A stretch of 20,241 nucleotides of DNA from IMG/VR virus record IMGVR_UViG_2802429219_000017, positions 1 to 20,241 of that record. One strand, written 5' to 3'. Below the pieces are notes generated by a model that did not search any database, was not told the DNA's origin, and saw only the letters and a program-made list of their open reading frames with translations. The DNA is from a virus. Its lineage: Duplodnaviria; Heunggongvirae; Uroviricota; Caudoviricetes. Made by a program: the position numbers and the translations under genes. This document shows positions 413 through 15,744 of this stretch, in pieces; the stretch's first letter is position 1; the number at the start of each line of letters is the position of its first letter.

Positions 413-500
413 AACATTTTAGAGGATGATAAACGCGCTTTTTTTCTGACCACTTTACGCGCGGACTGGAAAACCTGGCGTCGTCATCTATTCTTAAAAG

Positions 501-603
501 GCAAGGCAACTAAGCCTGCATTAATGCCAACTTTTAGCGCACGGCTCTCTCCCAAGAGCCATTTCCCTGGACCGAATACAGGAATCGTATTCGGTCTCTT
601 TTT
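501..603 (+). ncRNA. sdsR: SdsR (RyeB) sigma-S-dependent small RNA
   Basis: Sequence GCAAGGCAACTAAGCCTGCATTAATGCC... ending in hairpin ACCGAATAC/GTATTCGGT (571-595) plus CTCTTTTT matches my memory of SdsR. A sigma-S-like -10 CTATTCT lies at 488-494, 7 nt upstream. Length ~103 nt fits. Confidence 0.6.
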
Positions 604-734
604 AATTGTATTTAAAATCAATTAGTTGCAAGCGCCTCCCCGAAATTCCCCGAAATTTACTCGAATTTCTGTATTCCGGTCTTTTTTGGTTATATCACAA
701 CCAATATACATTTAACAATCCATTTACGTAAAAA

Positions 735-1811
735 TCAGAGCAGTAAGTACGTTTTTTCTCTCTCATCAAGATACATTTTTGTTGTCTTCTCCGATGTGTG
801 GCCAAGTAGACGCTGAGCAAATTCTTCTCCACATGTTTCTTTGTATAATCGTCCAGCCAGGCTTCTGATCTCGTGAAAAGTTGGTGGGTTTTCACTGAAC
901 TGGATACCTGTTAATTTTCTGGCTGCAACAAATTTTTTTGTCAGGCCGTCCGGGTGAATGCTTCCGTCAGGGCTGTTTTTTCTAATCCCGGCACTGATTA
1001 GAAAATCTCCCCGGCTTACCAGGCGGCACCGTTCAACTACTGTACCAAGACGTAGACCAGCGACAGGAAGGCTGAGTGACAGGGGGATAGCAATCATCAT
1101 TCCTGTCTTAATTTGCCTGATGTGGAGACGATCATCATAAATATCACTGAACCGCATATTCGTTATGTCTTCGCGACGTTGTCCTGTTACAAGGGCTAAG
1201 TCCATAGCTAATGGGAACCATGTCGGAAGTTGATCTGCTGCCTCCCTGATGCAGTTGTATGTCTTTAGTTTCAGCCGTTCTCTTGTAACTACTATTTTCG
1301 GTGCTCTTGTTGGCGTTACTGGATTTTGAGATATACGCCCTTCAACAATGGCTTCGCGGAACATATCAGATAACACAGAACGCATTGATCCTGCCATCGT
1401 GTTTTTCCCTCCTTCAATCCACAAATCAAGAAACTCGGCAATATGGCGAGTGGTTATTTCTGTCAGTAAAATCCCTCCTAATTTTTCTTTTATTGTTTCC
1501 AGTTGATTTCCCCGAATTTTATAAGTATTTCTGGACACTTTTCTCCTTATAAGAATCGTTTTGTAACGTTCAATCCAGTCTGCCATAGTAAATGAGTCGA
1601 ACCCTTTAAGTTTTTCAATTAAGGCAGCAGGAGAGTAGTTTTTGTATATATAATGATTTGCTTCAATTGCCTGCGCGATTGCATCTCTTCTTGAAATTTT
1701 ACCTAGTGTAAATTCTTCTTTCGTCAGAGGGTTGCGCCAGTAATATGCTTTGTCCCTCCTTCGATATGTTAAGTTCCTAGGCAAATTGGGATCGTATTTT
1801 TTCCGCTGCAT
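735..1811 (-). CDS. int: Phage tyrosine integrase, lambda Int family (358 aa)
   Basis: Translation aligns by eye with lambda Int along its length (N-terminal arm-binding region NLPRNLTYRRR, C-terminal ...PTFHEIRSLAGRLY...LLGH... catalytic region). Confidence 0.9.
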   Translation of the reverse strand: MQRKKYDPNLPRNLTYRRRDKAYYWRNPLTKEEFTLGKISRRDAIAQAIEANHYIYKNYSPAALIEKLKGFDSFTMADWIERYKTILIRRKVSRNTYKIRGNQLETIKEKLGGILLTEITTRHIAEFLDLWIEGGKNTMAGSMRSVLSDMFREAIVEGRISQNPVTPTRAPKIVVTRERLKLKTYNCIREAADQLPTWFPLAMDLALVTGQRREDITNMRFSDIYDDRLHIRQIKTGMMIAIPLSLSLPVAGLRLGTVVERCRLVSRGDFLISAGIRKNSPDGSIHPDGLTKKFVAARKLTGIQFSENPPTFHEIRSLAGRLYKETCGEEFAQRLLGHTSEKTTKMYLDEREKTYLLL

Positions 1812-2058
1812 GTTTTAACTTCTCCAGTAACGGACTGTCTCTCCCTTGTCGCCCATTAGGCTGATGGTGTGTTATATCGGTATCAACCTTATTTGGGTTG
1901 ATATAGAAAGCCTCCGGAACCACCCTGTAACTCCTCCCGTGTAGTTCAGGTGCAGGATAAATGTTTCCATTCCTTGCCCATCGTCTCAGCGTTGATATTG
2001 ATGGTGGGTTATCCGGATATCTGAGTTTTCCCCACGTTTTGAGTGTCACAAGATTCAT
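1777..2058 (-). CDS. xis: Excisionase (Xis-like), overlapping the int start
   Basis: Small basic ORF immediately upstream of and overlapping int. SD AAGAGGT favours the second ATG (MNLVTLKTWGKL...) at 2058; the first ATG is at 2064. Confidence 0.65.
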   Translation of the reverse strand: MNLVTLKTWGKLRYPDNPPSISTLRRWARNGNIYPAPELHGRSYRVVPEAFYINPNKVDTDITHHQPNGRQGRDSPLLEKLKHAAEKIRSQFA

Positions 2059-2164
2059 TGCCATACCTCTTACGATATGACCGCCAGTAAATATACAGAA
2101 TACTGGCGGACGTGATTGATTTTTAATAATCAGCTATGAAGTTATAATTTGGATATAATGCAAC

Positions 2165-2353
2165 TCACGAGGGCAGAAGTTTCTCGCAATTAAAATTTAT
2201 CAGCTTTACTTTCTGCTCTCTGGAAACGCCTGCTTCTTTTTTTCCCGAGAGCATTTTTTCGCATTCCGATTTGGTTAACTTTGTTTTTGAGTACCTTGTC
2301 CAGTTAGTAGGAGTGCCACCTTCCTTTTCAATAGTGGCGGTAACTTTATACAT
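2165..2353 (-). CDS. ydaC: YdaC-like small protein (Rac prophage family)
   Basis: MYKVTATIEKEGGTPTNWTRYSKTKLTKSECEKMLSGKK... resembles Rac YdaC. GGAGG lies 5 nt before the ATG at 2353; upstream in-frame starts at 2365 and 2425 are possible. Confidence 0.6.
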   Translation of the reverse strand: MYKVTATIEKEGGTPTNWTRYSKTKLTKSECEKMLSGKKEAGVSREQKVKLINFNCEKLLPS

Positions 2354-2540
2354 GAACACCTCCATTATTATTTCCAGTGGTTCGTTTATTCCATCGTTCG
2401 AGTGCTTCTTTTTCACTTCCACCATAGCCGGTTCGGGATTCGCATCCGTTACACTTCGCGCGGTAATATCCTGAAATGGCTTTCACCGTTACTGATGGGC
2501 AACCACAAAAAGGGCATGGTTTGACTTTTTCATACCGCAT
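2346..2540 (-). CDS. ralR: RalR / Lar restriction-alleviation protein, type I toxin (64 aa)
   Basis: MRYEKVKPCPFCGCPSVTVKAISGYYRAKCNGCESRTGYGGSEKEALERWNKRTTGNNNGGVHV is near-identical to my memory of Rac RalR. Purine-rich SD precedes the ATG at 2540; the ORF is open back to 2555. Confidence 0.8.
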   Translation of the reverse strand: MRYEKVKPCPFCGCPSVTVKAISGYYRAKCNGCESRTGYGGSEKEALERWNKRTTGNNNGGVHV

Positions 2541-2603
2541 TGTCTTTTCTCTCATATAATAAAATTTTGTGATGGCGGTGAGGCTACACCGCCAAAGTCA
2601 ATA

Positions 2604-3692
2604 TCAGGAGCCGATATATTCTGGTTTCATATCTGTCAGTGTCGTTTTATACGCCTCATATAATTCACCCAGATGTGGCCGGGCAGCATTCAGCGTATTT
2701 TCCAGAGCAGTAAATTTTTGTTCTGCATCTGGATCACCGGATGAAGGAAGGTCATTTATCATCTTCTCGATACTGGCAATAGCATTGAGACGGTGATGAC
2801 GCCGAACCACTTTTCCTTTAAGCTCGGCAAAGAATTCGCCGATCTGGTTTTTCTGATCCTCTATCTCTTGGCGTAATGCAGTGGTTTCCTCAGTCGTGGC
2901 CGCGCTTTCGACACGCTGCCGGAATTCATCAATCCACGCTTCGTCAATACGCTGTTCGATGGTTTCTGTTCGCTGCTCGCTTACCTCGCTATAATTCTGT
3001 ACCGGCACAGGATTGATGATTTTTTCCTGTGGCTCTTCCAGTTCGTCCGGGGTATACACGCCCAGGATGACGTCAGGACAATAAAGGCGAGCCCAGTATT
3101 TCAACGCCAGATAGGCGAGCTGTTGTTTCGGGTTTGAGGTCCATAAAGGAGAATTACGCGTAATCACGCTGGAAAGAAACACCGGTTCTCCCCAGGTAAT
3201 CTCACTTTCACCGCGAAGAACTGCACCAACTCGAACTGAGAGACCATACTCATCTTCACTGGTCCAACATGGGATCGTTTCTTTTTTCTCATAGATTCCG
3301 CCTCCTTTGGCCGTTTTCTTAACGGTCTCCACTCGGGTGCGAGAGCATTTCTCCCAGTCTCCCTCGTACTTGTAATGGAAGCGGCCTACAATTGCACTTG
3401 AGCTAGAGATCACAGCGTTAACCAGTTGTGCTTCATAACCCAGAACTCCGTTTACCAGGTGTGTTTTCTGAGCCACAGCGTAGGGGTTCATGCCCCATTG
3501 CATGGCTTGCATGATGATTGCCATGCAGTCGGCAGGCTTTCCGCGAAGGTGATCGGGAACTGTGACGGTGGCCTGTGACATCAACCCGGCTACTTCCTGA
3601 AGTTGCGTCAACGCCTGAACGTTAAAAATAGTGTTACTGGCAGAAATGGTATTTGGTGTCTGCTCTGTCGTGATGATATTGGTATTTTGCAT
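2604..3692 (-). CDS. Single-strand annealing recombinase in the RecT position (divergent from K-12 RecT)
   Basis: Sits immediately downstream of recE with overlapping stop/start. GGAGAA SD favours the ATG at 3692 (MQNTNIIT...); the ORF is open to 3707. The RecT-family call rests on position and general resemblance only. Confidence 0.65.
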   Translation of the reverse strand: MQNTNIITTEQTPNTISASNTIFNVQALTQLQEVAGLMSQATVTVPDHLRGKPADCMAIIMQAMQWGMNPYAVAQKTHLVNGVLGYEAQLVNAVISSSSAIVGRFHYKYEGDWEKCSRTRVETVKKTAKGGGIYEKKETIPCWTSEDEYGLSVRVGAVLRGESEITWGEPVFLSSVITRNSPLWTSNPKQQLAYLALKYWARLYCPDVILGVYTPDELEEPQEKIINPVPVQNYSEVSEQRTETIEQRIDEAWIDEFRQRVESAATTEETTALRQEIEDQKNQIGEFFAELKGKVVRRHHRLNAIASIEKMINDLPSSGDPDAEQKFTALENTLNAARPHLGELYEAYKTTLTDMKPEYIGS

Positions 3693-3706
3693 GGTCAGGT
3701 TCTCCA

Positions 3707-6700
3707 TTAAGCCAGATGCAGTGCTTCAAGACGACGAAGATCAAAGTCGTTTAATTCGTCGGTATAACTTTCGGTTATCGGTGCTGGCCAATTGTTTGTC
3801 TCCAGGGCTTCGTTTATCTGGCGTAGCGTCCGGCGATATTCCTGTCGACCAAGTTCCAGGAGTTCCTGCGAGGCTTCCACGACAGCCACCCAGTGATAGC
3901 CAGCATCTTTGTTGACGAAGATCCAGAAAAATTTGTCCAGGTTTGCCACATCGCAATACATTGCGGCGCTGAGGTGATAATCACGCTCAATAATTTCACG
4001 GTGCAGGCGATCTTTAAGTCGTTCCTGCCGCACATAACCGAGGCTGACTGACTTCACGTCAGCGCAAATGCTTTCGTATGGCAGCCGGATTTCGATATCA
4101 GGACGGACCCTGATTTCCAGCCCGGTTTCTTCATCAAACCCGAAATAGCTGATTTCAGATTTGCGATCCGGGTGGTTGAGTAGCCTTGCTGCATCGGTAT
4201 TGTTTTGCAGTGCCGCGTGAATATTTTTTGCCTGTTCATACATATCCGGACTGATAAACGTTTTCCCGGCGTTTTCTTCTTGCTGGCGTTTTTGCCAGTC
4301 CTCCAGTGTCACCAGTTCCGGGCGAATTTTCCGTGCGATTTCGGTTAATTGCTCTTTTGTGCCACTGATGTTGTAAGGCAAAGATTTAGCACGTTCTTTT
4401 TTTGCCAGTTCTGGGTCTACAGTTTCAATTTGATCCAGAAGCTGCTCCCGTGCTCCACTGGTTTTCAACAGAGGAGGGAGGCTTGCGTTGTATTCTTTAA
4501 TACAGGCTTTCATTGCTGATGCTGTATGTTTTTCCCCCTCAGGAATACGCCGAAATTCCACCGGAAGCGAACCGTAAAGGATGCCTGTTTCTTCGGCCCC
4601 AGCACTTACAGACAGTGGCTGTATAAGAGTGCTGTTGTAGCTTTCGATCCACTCTTTCATCTGCTCTGGTGTCATCAGTGCTGGCAGACTGGCATTGTGT
4701 TTTTTAATGATGGCGATCAGTTCGTTAGAAGTAGTAACCACATATTCAGGAACCGGTACCGGAATGGCATATTCATCAGCGAATTTATCCGTTTCCAGAA
4801 CATAGCTGTGAATGATCCGCCCACGCAGCAGTGCATCACTTTCCTCGTTCGGAATAGTTCCGGCAATGTGCCGCCCGTGGTAATACATCAGGCTGATACG
4901 GGCATCCTTCAGCATCGTGCTGCTTATTCCGTTGGCGGAGTGATAAACCTCGTTCGGGAGGTTTTCATAGCGGCCTGGCTCGAAATATGACGGCCACATG
5001 ATTTCAGTTGCTACAGGAGCTGACGCTTCACCAGTTTCATCACTGCAATCACGATGCGGATCGCTGCCAGCATTCTCATTGTGCGGATGTTCAGCGCCTT
5101 CCATTTCCACCGGATCTTTTTCCTTAGCTTCAACCTGATTCTCTTCATCGAATGTTTCCTGGTATGTTGCGTCGCCCATTACCGCACCACAGTCAGGGCA
5201 GTTATCCCCGTCAGTCTGACCGCAGGCGGCGCAGACTTTTTCCGGTTCCTGTTGCGCTTCTGGTTCATTTTGTCGCGCATTTTGGCCGTTTTGTTCCGAT
5301 TTTCGGTCGTTCTGTTCCGTTTTTGGCTGATGCTGGTACACAGAATCGCGGGTCTGGATCCCCTTAACCCATTTCGGATCATTCGGGTCGCTAATCCCTT
5401 CAACAAATTCTCCGCGATAGGCAGCCAGTAATTTGTCTGCATCGACAGGATTTTTGGGCGGAATGTTTTTCCGGGCTTCATGGAGTTCTGCCCGCAGTTC
5501 TTGATATTTCGCATCAACAGAATTTACCTGTGACTGAGCATCCAGCGGCTGCGTGTCCTGATGATGTTCAGTTGCGTCCGGTTCCATTGTTTCAGCCTCT
5601 CCCTGTTCATCTGCCGTTGTTCCAGATGGTTGCGGTTTTTCTTCATCATCCTGTTTTCCTTCTTCTGTTACACGCTGCGGCATCGGGGCAGAGGAACGAC
5701 CGCAGGCAATATCCACGATTTCCGGATCAGGGTTGGCATGATCAGTTTCAGTCAGTACTTTGTTCAGATATTCAGTGACGTGCGCGGGGGTGACCTCGAT
5801 CCCAATTGGTGCTTCTTTCACGGACGCAACCACGATGGCGCGGGAATAATCCAGCCCGCCAGGCATGGTGATGAATTTGTCGCGGAAAACAGAAAAGGGC
5901 GGTTTATTTTCAGCGATAATTTCCTCAATGCGTTTAGCGTGTGCCGGATGAAGGTTATAAATGTCCACGTCCATTGAACGGGCCAGTACGCCAGTGGCTA
6001 CGTCGCGCGCCAGCGACGTCAGATCGTGGACGAAACCTTCGCCGCGATCGGTGAGGTTCCCGCCGCCAGCATTAGCACCGGAAGCCATGCGCGTGATGCG
6101 TGAAACACGATTCCCTTTTCGCCATTCTTTTGTCAGAAGACCGCGATCAATGTGTTCGGTATCCAGCCAGGCTGAAATGAAATTCTTAAATTCATAGGGC
6201 TGATGTTTTTTCGTGATAGAGAAAACCCCCTTAATTGCATCAGTCAGGCGGAGCAGGGCGGCATTATCCAGAGTTGTCGGTTCTGCCATGCCGCGTATGG
6301 CCAACAGCAGATTCTGGACATAGCTGTTTTCCTGATCCATCTCAAGAGCAGTAATGTGTTCGCGTTGTTCTCGGGTGGCATGATGCAGGTATTTCCGATC
6401 CCCGGCCGCATAGGTAAAAATGTGCAGAAGACGCTGTGTGAACCGCAAAGTGGCTACAGAGACTTCGCAATCCTGGCAATCCTCGTGGGCGTCTGCCTGC
6501 GTGTTTTCTTCCTGGCCTCCCGCCAGTTCTTTGGTTTCTTGAGCATTATCCTGGTGGTGAACGTCGTCTGGCGCTGCTCCCGGTTTTAGTTCCCAGGTCA
6601 TGGAGTCTTTGCTGAGTTGATAGCGTTCACTCCAGGTAAAATCGATCTCACCTTCAGGGGGCAGGTCATTAACGACAGGAAAATTCGTGGCAACAGCTTT

Positions 6701-6853
6701 AAAATAGCTGCTCAGTTTTTTACCTGACTTAACGATCAGGTAGTCCAGAGTGGCACAGGTCGATTCAAAATCGTCGCTTGCCCACAGGACGACGTCAGGT
6801 TCACCGGATGATTTTTTCGCTTTCCGTAACAGGAAGAGTGGTTTTGTGCTCAT
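3707..6853 (-). CDS. recE: Exodeoxyribonuclease VIII (RecE-like), 1048 aa, with a divergent C-terminal PD-(D/E)XK nuclease domain
   Basis: N-terminal ~590 aa closely match my memory of Rac RecE, including the CxxC...CPDC zinc motif. The C-terminal region has a RecE/YqaJ-like YH..GIS motif and a PD...(D/E)xK core (RPDIEI...ADVKS) but carries a large insertion with three related repeats. Confidence 0.85.
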
Positions 6854-15378: not shown

Positions 15379-15588
15379 AAACGATTTGCGGGAAAAGGAT
15401 AGTTAAGTAGAATTGCTGCGGGTGCTTGAGGCTATCTGTCTCAGGCATGAACACCAAAGGCAGATAGAGAAAAGCCCCAGTTAACATTACGCGTCCTGCA
15501 AGACGCTTAACATTAATCTGAGGCCAATTTCATGCTAGACACATGTAGGTTAGCCTCTTACGCGCCGAAAGGCAAGGAGAAGCAGGCT

Positions 15589-15744
15589 ATGAAGCAGCAA
15601 AAGGCGATGTTAATCGCCCTGATCGTCATCTGTTTAACCGTCATAGTGACGGCACTGGTAACGAGGAAAGACCTCTGCGAGGTACGAATCCGAACCGGGC
15701 AGACGGAGGTCGCTGTCTTCACAGCTTACGAACCTGAGGAGTAA
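15589..15744 (+). CDS. hok: Hok/Gef-family type I toxin (HokD/RelF-like, 51 aa)
   Basis: MKQQKAMLIALIVICLTVIVTALVTRKDLCEVRIRTGQTEVAVFTAYEPEE matches my memory of the Hok family. AAGGAGAAG SD. An in-frame upstream ATG at 15532 gives a mok-like leader. Confidence 0.85.
   Translation: MKQQKAMLIALIVICLTVIVTALVTRKDLCEVRIRTGQTEVAVFTAYEPEE

Follow-up and report, generated by a model that had tools for sequence, protein, structure and literature searches.

How is the RalR toxin of this prophage held in check? The stretch of viral DNA analysed here (Caudoviricetes record IMGVR_UViG_2802429219_000017, positions 1 to 20,241, hereafter the window) carries at 2165-2555 a ralR gene that runs into a second small gene, ydaC, also called rcbA. 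An earlier note on this DNA described RalR as a DNase toxin repressed by a small RNA (sRNA), RalA, via a short pairing region, which agrees with what has been reported for the Rac prophage of Escherichia coli K-12 (PMC4041452), and it left the antitoxin of the present prophage 'undefined'. We put at roughly 0.82 the probability that 2165-2555 is a ralR-ydaC(rcbA)/ralA module belonging to a Rac-like lambdoid prophage; the antitoxin gene lies, complete, on the strand opposite ydaC.

The locus and its neighbours

The features that define the locus are as follows.

735-1811, minus strand: lambda-type integrase gene (ORF list and profile search)
1777-2064, minus strand: excisionase gene (ORF list and profile search)
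2165-2353, minus strand: ydaC/rcbA, DUF1187 family, 62 aa (ORF list, Pfam and NCBIfam)
2348-2346, minus strand: ralR stop codon, TAA (sequence)
2353-2351, minus strand: ydaC start codon, ATG (sequence)
2359-2363, minus strand: Shine-Dalgarno sequence GGAGG, inside the last part of ralR, 5 nt before the ATG of ydaC
2346-2540, minus strand: ralR coding sequence, 64 aa (K-12-equivalent start, ATG at 2540)
2604-3707, minus strand: recT (ORF list and profile search)
3707-6853, minus strand: recE (ORF list and profile search)

Every gene in this left arm of the prophage is on the minus strand, and the module sits in a leftward early operon that reads recE-recT-ralR-ydaC-xis-int. The reading of ralR, ydaC and their 8-nt overlap (2346-2353, the start of ydaC lying over the stop of ralR) that the earlier note had given holds true, and the same geometry is found in K-12. 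The closest complete E. coli genome, that of ETEC4085, is 99.4% identical across 1750-2650 and is annotated by PGAP with an integrase, an excisionase, a 'DUF1187 family protein' (189 nt), ralR (195 nt), RecT and RecE, both small genes overlapping by 8 nt as they do in the window.

The boundary originally drawn at 2555 needs a correction. The open reading frame 2346-2555 does contain ralR, but the start equivalent to that of K-12 is at 2540, and the ATG at 2555 is an upstream in-frame codon that would add five residues (MREKT) to the protein. K-12 ralR is likewise preceded by a comparable in-frame upstream ATG. RalR is identical to its K-12 counterpart at 62 of 64 residues and is matched from end to end (1-64 of 64) by the NCBIfam RalR equivalog NF007260 (163 bits, cut-off 113), as well as by Pfam PF14354, Lar_restr_allev (52.9 bits, cut-off 28.6), and by TIGR03655 (55.3 bits, cut-off 39.6). 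Since the only differences from K-12 fall at residues 4 (D to E) and 5 (N to K), the residues needed for toxicity, which are 14, 37, 39, 49, 51 and 52 (PMC4041452), are all unchanged. K-12 RalR is a non-specific DNase that is toxic on overexpression (PMC4041452) and, by analogy with these experiments, RalR of the window prophage would be expected to be toxic too.

An antitoxin gene antisense to ydaC

The feature that had been missing can be given in one line.

2169-2347, plus strand: ralA, gene for the 179-nt RalA antitoxin sRNA (Rfam RF02694)

When the whole window was scanned against Rfam, the RalA model matched here with 214.2 bits (gathering score 170, E 2.5e-51) over positions 1-179 of 179, i.e. 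at full length and at the K-12 position, so that the RalR antitoxin of this prophage, far from undefined, can now be placed for annotation. All of the gene is antisense to ydaC, and at its 3' end it shares 2 nt with the ralR stop codon. The prospect that no ralA-like sequence would turn up on alignment with K-12 has not materialised either: the two ralA sequences are 92.2% identical, with 14 substitutions and no indels, and from ydaC to ralR the window aligns with K-12 Rac without a gap. [quoted passage not shown] The window allele is shared, letter for letter, with another IMG/VR contig (L103). We assign the gene to the RalA family on the strength of its model score, its position, its intact target box in ralR and its intact 11-nt pairing core (see below), and by these measures a full-length ralA orthologue is present at the K-12-equivalent position.

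Automatic pipelines omit the gene: in the closest genomes, PGAP calls only ralR and a 'DUF1187 family protein'. RalA-like sequence is found in 1922 of 5426 complete E. coli genomes, where it always lies under features annotated only as DUF1187 and ralR. The absence of ralA from such records is a gap in automatic annotation, not a biological one.

Pairing between RalA and ralR

Two short boxes, one in each RNA, are at the heart of the matter.

2231-2246, plus strand: RalA 16-nt pairing box, RalA nucleotides 63-78 (TGCTTCTTTTTTTCCC; in K-12 TGCTTCTTTTTTACCT)
2403-2418, minus strand: RalA target box in the ralR mRNA, coding nucleotides 123-138 (AAGUGAAAAAGAAGCA; codons Ser-Glu-Lys-Glu-Ala)

The target in ralR (AAGTGAAAAAGAAGCA, 2403-2418) does not differ from that of K-12. 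In the RalA box a perfect core of 11 nt (2231-2241) is kept, which is complementary to ralR nucleotides 128-138 and is followed by one G-U pair. The 20-kb window contains this core, TGCTTCTTTTT, at two positions only, 2231 and 2403, against an average of 0.02 matches in shuffled sequences; the ralR target box is a direct-repeat copy of the core of the RalA box. The pairing core is beyond chance.

Outside the core, two substitutions relative to K-12 (A75U and U78C) remove two of the 15 K-12 pairs, so that 13 of the 16 box positions can pair in the window (15 in K-12), of which the computed duplex forms about 12-13, and the predicted energy of the 16-nt duplex is -13.6 kcal/mol as against -17.5 kcal/mol in K-12. 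This weaker duplex is not unusual, because about half of the natural alleles belong to the same class: of 43 unique RalA alleles, 23 carry C or U in place of A at position 75, with predicted pairing limited to the ~12-bp core, and 22 of these 23 give duplexes of about -13 kcal/mol, like that of the window. Duplex energy was not distinctive. Local duplexes between RalA and the ralR mRNA were not significant when compared with shuffled RalA, which did as well in 14 of 30 cases for the window and in 4 of 30 for K-12, and the informative tests of pairing are the exact-complement and repeat tests, used in place of duplex energy; computation of a full-length RalA-ralR duplex was left out as not meaningful.

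What RalA might do with this complementarity is best read from K-12, from which its transcription, its ends, its dependence on Hfq and translational repression of its target are all carried over. RalA would, by orthology, be an Hfq-dependent sRNA of ~179 nt, nucleotides 63-74 of which (UGCUUCUUUUUU, 2231-2242) would pair with ralR coding nucleotides 127-138 through 11 Watson-Crick pairs and one G-U pair, and this pairing would lower the synthesis of RalR protein, thereby holding the small DNase in check. In K-12, changes at RalA 63 or 64 weaken antitoxin activity, four changes abolish it and matching changes in ralR restore it (PMC4041452). Our search of the literature found no paper combining RalA with RIL-seq and Hfq.

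The position of ralA suggests a different use of the same RNA, in which it would act mainly as a cis-antisense RNA that controls the stability of a ralR-ydaC mRNA or the translation of ydaC, the 16-nt pairing in trans being secondary. The whole of RalA is encoded opposite ydaC and reaches into the ralR stop, while the 8-nt overlap of the two genes and the GGAGG inside ralR imply one transcript and coupled translation, and the consensus scan found no terminator between ralR and ydaC. Co-transcription of the two genes would make every one of the 179 nt of RalA complementary to the 3' part of their mRNA. We nevertheless regard a mainly cis-acting RalA as unlikely, because in K-12 a ralR expressed in the absence of ydaC was neutralised by RalA from a second plasmid (PMC4041452), a result which, together with the loss of activity on box mutation and its return on compensatory mutation (PMC4041452), indicates that short pairing in trans is sufficient.

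ydaC as a protein gene

YdaC is matched by Pfam PF06688, DUF1187 (126.7 bits, cut-off 20.7), over the entire profile (1-61 of 61) and by NCBIfam NF007283 at full length (134 bits); the region before its start codon, read directly, is ...AATGGAGGTGTTCATG. The ydaC genes of the window and K-12 differ by 10 synonymous and 2 non-synonymous changes, which gives a dN/dS of 0.04; the ratio is 0.036 in a second, independent pair (L009 and L010, introduced below), and between the two clades to which these pairs belong synonymous sites are saturated and pN is 0.21. Variable sites number 13, 8 and 24 at the first, second and third codon positions, most of them at the third, and a protein-coding pattern of divergence was not found in any of the other five reading frames of the ydaC DNA. 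On this evidence ydaC evolves as a real protein gene, whose 62-aa form is in the majority and whose 69-aa form, that of K-12, is in the minority. Its dS (0.35) is no lower than that of ralR (0.30), which argues that RalA imposes little extra constraint overall.

We gathered 170 related loci from bacterial genomes and IMG/VR, some contigs being repeated, so that the counts include repeats. Among the 145 E. coli-type loci with both genes, 135 keep the perfect 11-nt complement, and in one or two loci RalA T63A is matched by ralR A138T, so that pairing is preserved by changes on both sides. A Citrobacter-type clade, a small sample of eight loci (L009 and L010, which are genome contigs, and L092-L097, viral contigs found by a scan with a YdaC alignment), has a RalR that is 65-72% identical (tblastn), and its ralR and DUF1187 genes are adjacent without overlap. 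In these eight loci, the 11-nt complementarity is absent, the longest ralR complement being 7-8 nt at inconsistent positions, and the RalA model reaches 35 and 29 bits on L009 and L010, the two that were scanned with Rfam. As far as these comparisons go, the predicted RalA-ralR pairing is well kept in the Escherichia-type clade and is not general to ralR-DUF1187 pairs. DUF1187 genes without ralR are found in other phage contexts (L102, L109 and L116), and two loci (L112 and L115) have an E. coli-type ydaC and an intact RalA box without ralR; conservation of the box may therefore partly reflect the coding of ydaC (Lys-Lys-Glu-Ala) rather than pairing.

Could the conserved function of the locus then be that of the YdaC/RcbA protein, to which any protection against RalR or chromosome breaks would at least partly be due, RalA being a young antisense RNA of the E. 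coli lineage and of minor importance? Much of what precedes would suit this idea, i.e. (i) the two low dN/dS values and the saturated synonymous sites between clades with their pN of 0.21, (ii) variation at the third codon position, a strong Shine-Dalgarno sequence and full-length Pfam and NCBIfam matches, (iii) DUF1187 genes that do without ralR, (iv) the loss of complementarity and of RalA model score in the Citrobacter-type clade and (v) a ydaC dS that is not below that of ralR, to which can be added an AlphaFold model of YdaC (single sequence) with a compact beta-beta-alpha-beta fold (pLDDT 81). In K-12, however, a ydaC stop at codon 9 or loss of the start codon left antitoxin activity in place, and neither gels nor western blots showed any YdaC protein (PMC4041452). 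Neither does structure point to an inhibitor, since the YdaC model had no match at E <= 0.001 in PDB or BFVD, and its best PDB match, the phage UDG inhibitor p56 (E 0.16, TM about 0.5), is a lead at most and not a finding. A protective YdaC with RalA in a minor role thus looks improbable to us, and the evidence that ydaC is coding does not contradict the translation of ydaC being dispensable for antitoxin activity.

Rather doubtful, although worth stating, is a bifunctional locus, its two strands encoding a protein and RalA respectively, in which the pairing would be a recent, Escherichia-restricted addition born of a chance direct repeat (Glu/Lys-Lys-Glu-Ala, present in both genes), and in which the ancestral partner of ralR, where there was any, would be the DUF1187 protein, which might inhibit a DNA-processing enzyme.

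Promoter, terminator and fold of RalA

Three features of RalA, the first and last of them candidates, belong here.

2154-2159, plus strand: candidate RalA -10 hexamer, TATAAT (TACAAT in K-12)
2170-2207, plus strand: RalA 5' stem-loop, model positions 2-39 (Rfam consensus structure)
2314-2347, plus strand: putative RalA terminator (Rfam structure; stem-loop 2314-2339, tail 2340-2347)

That neither a promoter nor a terminator of RalA can be read from the letters, as had been remarked before, is borne out by a consensus scan of 1900-2800, in which neither strand gave a sigma-70 promoter or an intrinsic terminator, and homology was used instead. In K-12, primer extension puts the start of RalA 62 nt before the 16-nt box, and the predicted terminator, a 5-bp GC-rich stem with a 14-nt loop and four U, the short U run lying at a distance, gives an RNA of 179 nt (PMC4041452); according to a review, mapping of the RalA end had not been reported (PMC4147584). 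By orthology, RalA of the window would start at G2169 and end at 2347. The last base of the TATAAT is 10 nt upstream of G2169, which leaves a rather long 9-nt gap, and no -35 element is recognisable upstream of this hexamer, for which nearly all related loci have either TATAAT or TACAAT. RalA would thus be transcribed from a weak promoter of which the -10 at 2154-2159 is the sole recognisable element. The putative terminator consists of a 6-bp stem (UGCCAC/GUGGCG), a 14-nt loop and the tail GUAACUUU, and its hairpin (-7.8 kcal/mol) is not better than shuffles. It is this combination of a missing -35 with a weak, atypical terminator that kept the RalA signals from being placed at first reading. 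One substitution in the tail, T176C, shortens the terminal U run from 4 to 3 and changes YdaC Ile4 to Val; among 91 aligned sequences (90 loci and the window) it is peculiar to the window.

The structure of RalA is weak as a whole. The 5' stem-loop is thermodynamically weak (-2.8 kcal/mol); its pair 5-36 is A-U in K-12 and G-C in the window, a compensatory change, and its pair 7-34 is A·A in the window, where three model pairs in all are non-canonical. The whole RNA folds at -39.2 kcal/mol (z -0.66), no better than shuffles, its hairpins taken one by one do not stand out either, and thermodynamics gives no independent support for the RalA structure. As for covariation, 2 of the 48 pairs in the Rfam structure show double-sided changes across the 43 unique alleles and 20 of 48 never vary, a set of alleles too close, and too constrained by ydaC coding, for covariation to test the structure.

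That ralA is silent or non-functional in the window, and ralR harmless simply through prophage repression of the leftward early operon, is very unlikely, since the lack of a -35 and of a consensus promoter, the U run shortened by a change unique among the 91 aligned sequences, the pairing weaker than in K-12 and the repression that dominates expression of the K-12 Rac early-left region (whose genes, including ydaC and ralA, rise >70-fold when RacR, the Rac repressor, is down-regulated; PMC6765115) have to be set against a perfect -10 TATAAT that is better than the TACAAT of K-12, a core-only box class to which about half of the natural alleles belong, and 179 nt with no indels and an identical allele in L103.

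Comparison with known systems

The interval is an ordinary copy of a module that is already known, the RalR/RalA type I toxin-antitoxin module with overlapping ydaC/rcbA, and the window leaves our understanding of RalR/RalA unchanged. Its points of note are a slightly weaker pairing box, a unique change in the terminator tail, the coding of ydaC and the lineage extent of the pairing. A mildly useful by-product is the support that comparison gives to ydaC as a protein gene under purifying selection and to a RalA-ralR complementarity confined to the Escherichia-type clade, a limit that bears on the generality of the published type I mechanism.

The closest relative is RalR/RalA of K-12 Rac (PMC4041452), with which the window shares (i) the order recT-ralR-ydaC on one strand with ralA antisense within ydaC, (ii) the 8-nt overlap between ralR and ydaC and the 2-nt overlap between ralA and ralR and (iii) an identical ralR target box, together with an identical 11-nt core and G-U pair in the RalA box. 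It differs from K-12 Rac in its -10 (TATAAT, not TACAAT), in its terminal U run (3, not 4) and in a ydaC of 62 aa, not 69, which ends 2 nt before the RalA start. The prophage as a whole differs too, with a lambda-type integrase, a location adjoining yebY and ryeA/ryeB rather than ttcA, and a longer recT and recE.

Among other type I modules with divergently encoded antitoxins, TisB/IstR-1, ShoB/OhsC and ZorO/OrzO resemble RalR/RalA in that the antitoxin RNA adjoins the toxin gene and pairs with its target over a short stretch, about 12-20 nt, instead of overlapping it in full (PMC4041452; PMC4147584). RalR/RalA departs from these three in that its pairing lies inside the toxin coding region, not in the 5' UTR or at the ribosome-binding site, and in its Hfq-dependent regulation (PMC4147584). 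In addition, and unlike the antitoxin genes of those systems, ralA lies over a protein-coding gene of the opposite strand, ydaC, and its toxin, RalR, is not a membrane peptide but a soluble DNase from the Lar zinc-ribbon family. Within the Lar/restriction-alleviation proteins, both of whose models (PF14354 and TIGR03655) RalR matches above their cut-offs, it is set apart from restriction alleviation by the DNase toxicity that Guo et al. report for it (PMC4041452).

ydaC as a protein gene and its association with ralR

The sequence evidence indicates that ydaC/rcbA, the DUF1187 gene on the minus strand of the window (2165-2353), follows a protein-coding mode of evolution. Two independent comparisons gave a dN/dS of ~0.04, the signal being specific to the reading frame, and a GGAGG motif lies 5 nt upstream of the ATG in the window. 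From a single sequence, AlphaFold models YdaC fairly confidently as a beta-beta-alpha-beta fold (pLDDT 81). The top neighbours of this model in the PDB, copies of p56, a phage inhibitor of uracil-DNA glycosylase, were non-significant (E 0.16, TM ~0.5).

Homologues of ydaC were also found without the toxin gene ralR. In two related IMG/VR loci (L112 and L115, around 1380-1690), ydaC is of the E. coli type and the RalA box (TGCTTCTTTTTTCCCT), the segment of the antitoxin sRNA that pairs with ralR, is intact, but ydaC has no ralR upstream, where a 365-aa protein different from RalR is encoded. These are 'orphan' RalA/ydaC copies, from which the published target is missing. In the diverged Citrobacter-type clade (L009, L010, L092-L097), ralR and the DUF1187 gene are adjacent but do not overlap (11-18 nt apart), there is an additional ORF of ~100 aa between recT and ralR, and no complement to ralR longer than 8 nt was found antisense to ydaC.

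The intergenic hairpin and neighbouring genes

Upstream of ralR, the following features are found.

2574-2593, minus-strand RNA: GC-rich hairpin, flanked by the stop of recT (2604) and the start of ralR (2540)
within 2604-6853, minus strand: recT ORF, 367 aa
within 2604-6853, minus strand: recE ORF, 1048 aa

The hairpin (stem GGCGGUG / CACCGCC) is predicted to be very stable (-15.3 kcal/mol, z -4.1), with none of 200 shuffles equalling it. It could be a terminator, an attenuator or an RNA-stabilising element between the two genes; since 9 nt separate it from the U run, a consensus scan did not call it as a terminator.

Elsewhere, the window carries a second type I toxin-antitoxin module (15420-15744).

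15532-15744, plus strand: hok/mok ORF
15420-15594, reported on the plus strand: Rfam 'sok' match, 117 bits

Comparison with Rac of E. coli K-12

The recT-ralR hairpin is retained in K-12 with a different loop. The recT and recE ORFs in the window are far longer than those annotated in Rac (810 nt and 2601 nt, respectively). The left end of the window carries the following.

1-342: yebY, adjoining the prophage
463-607, minus strand: SraC/RyeA sRNA gene, adjoining the prophage and overlapping SdsR/RyeB
504-603, plus strand: SdsR/RyeB sRNA gene, adjoining the prophage and overlapping SraC/RyeA
735-1811: lambda-type integrase

While Rac is located at ttcA and has IntR, the prophage in the window sits beside yebY and the SraC/RyeA-SdsR/RyeB pair and has a lambda-type integrase, that is, a different integration module (1-1811) is attached to a Rac-like early region.
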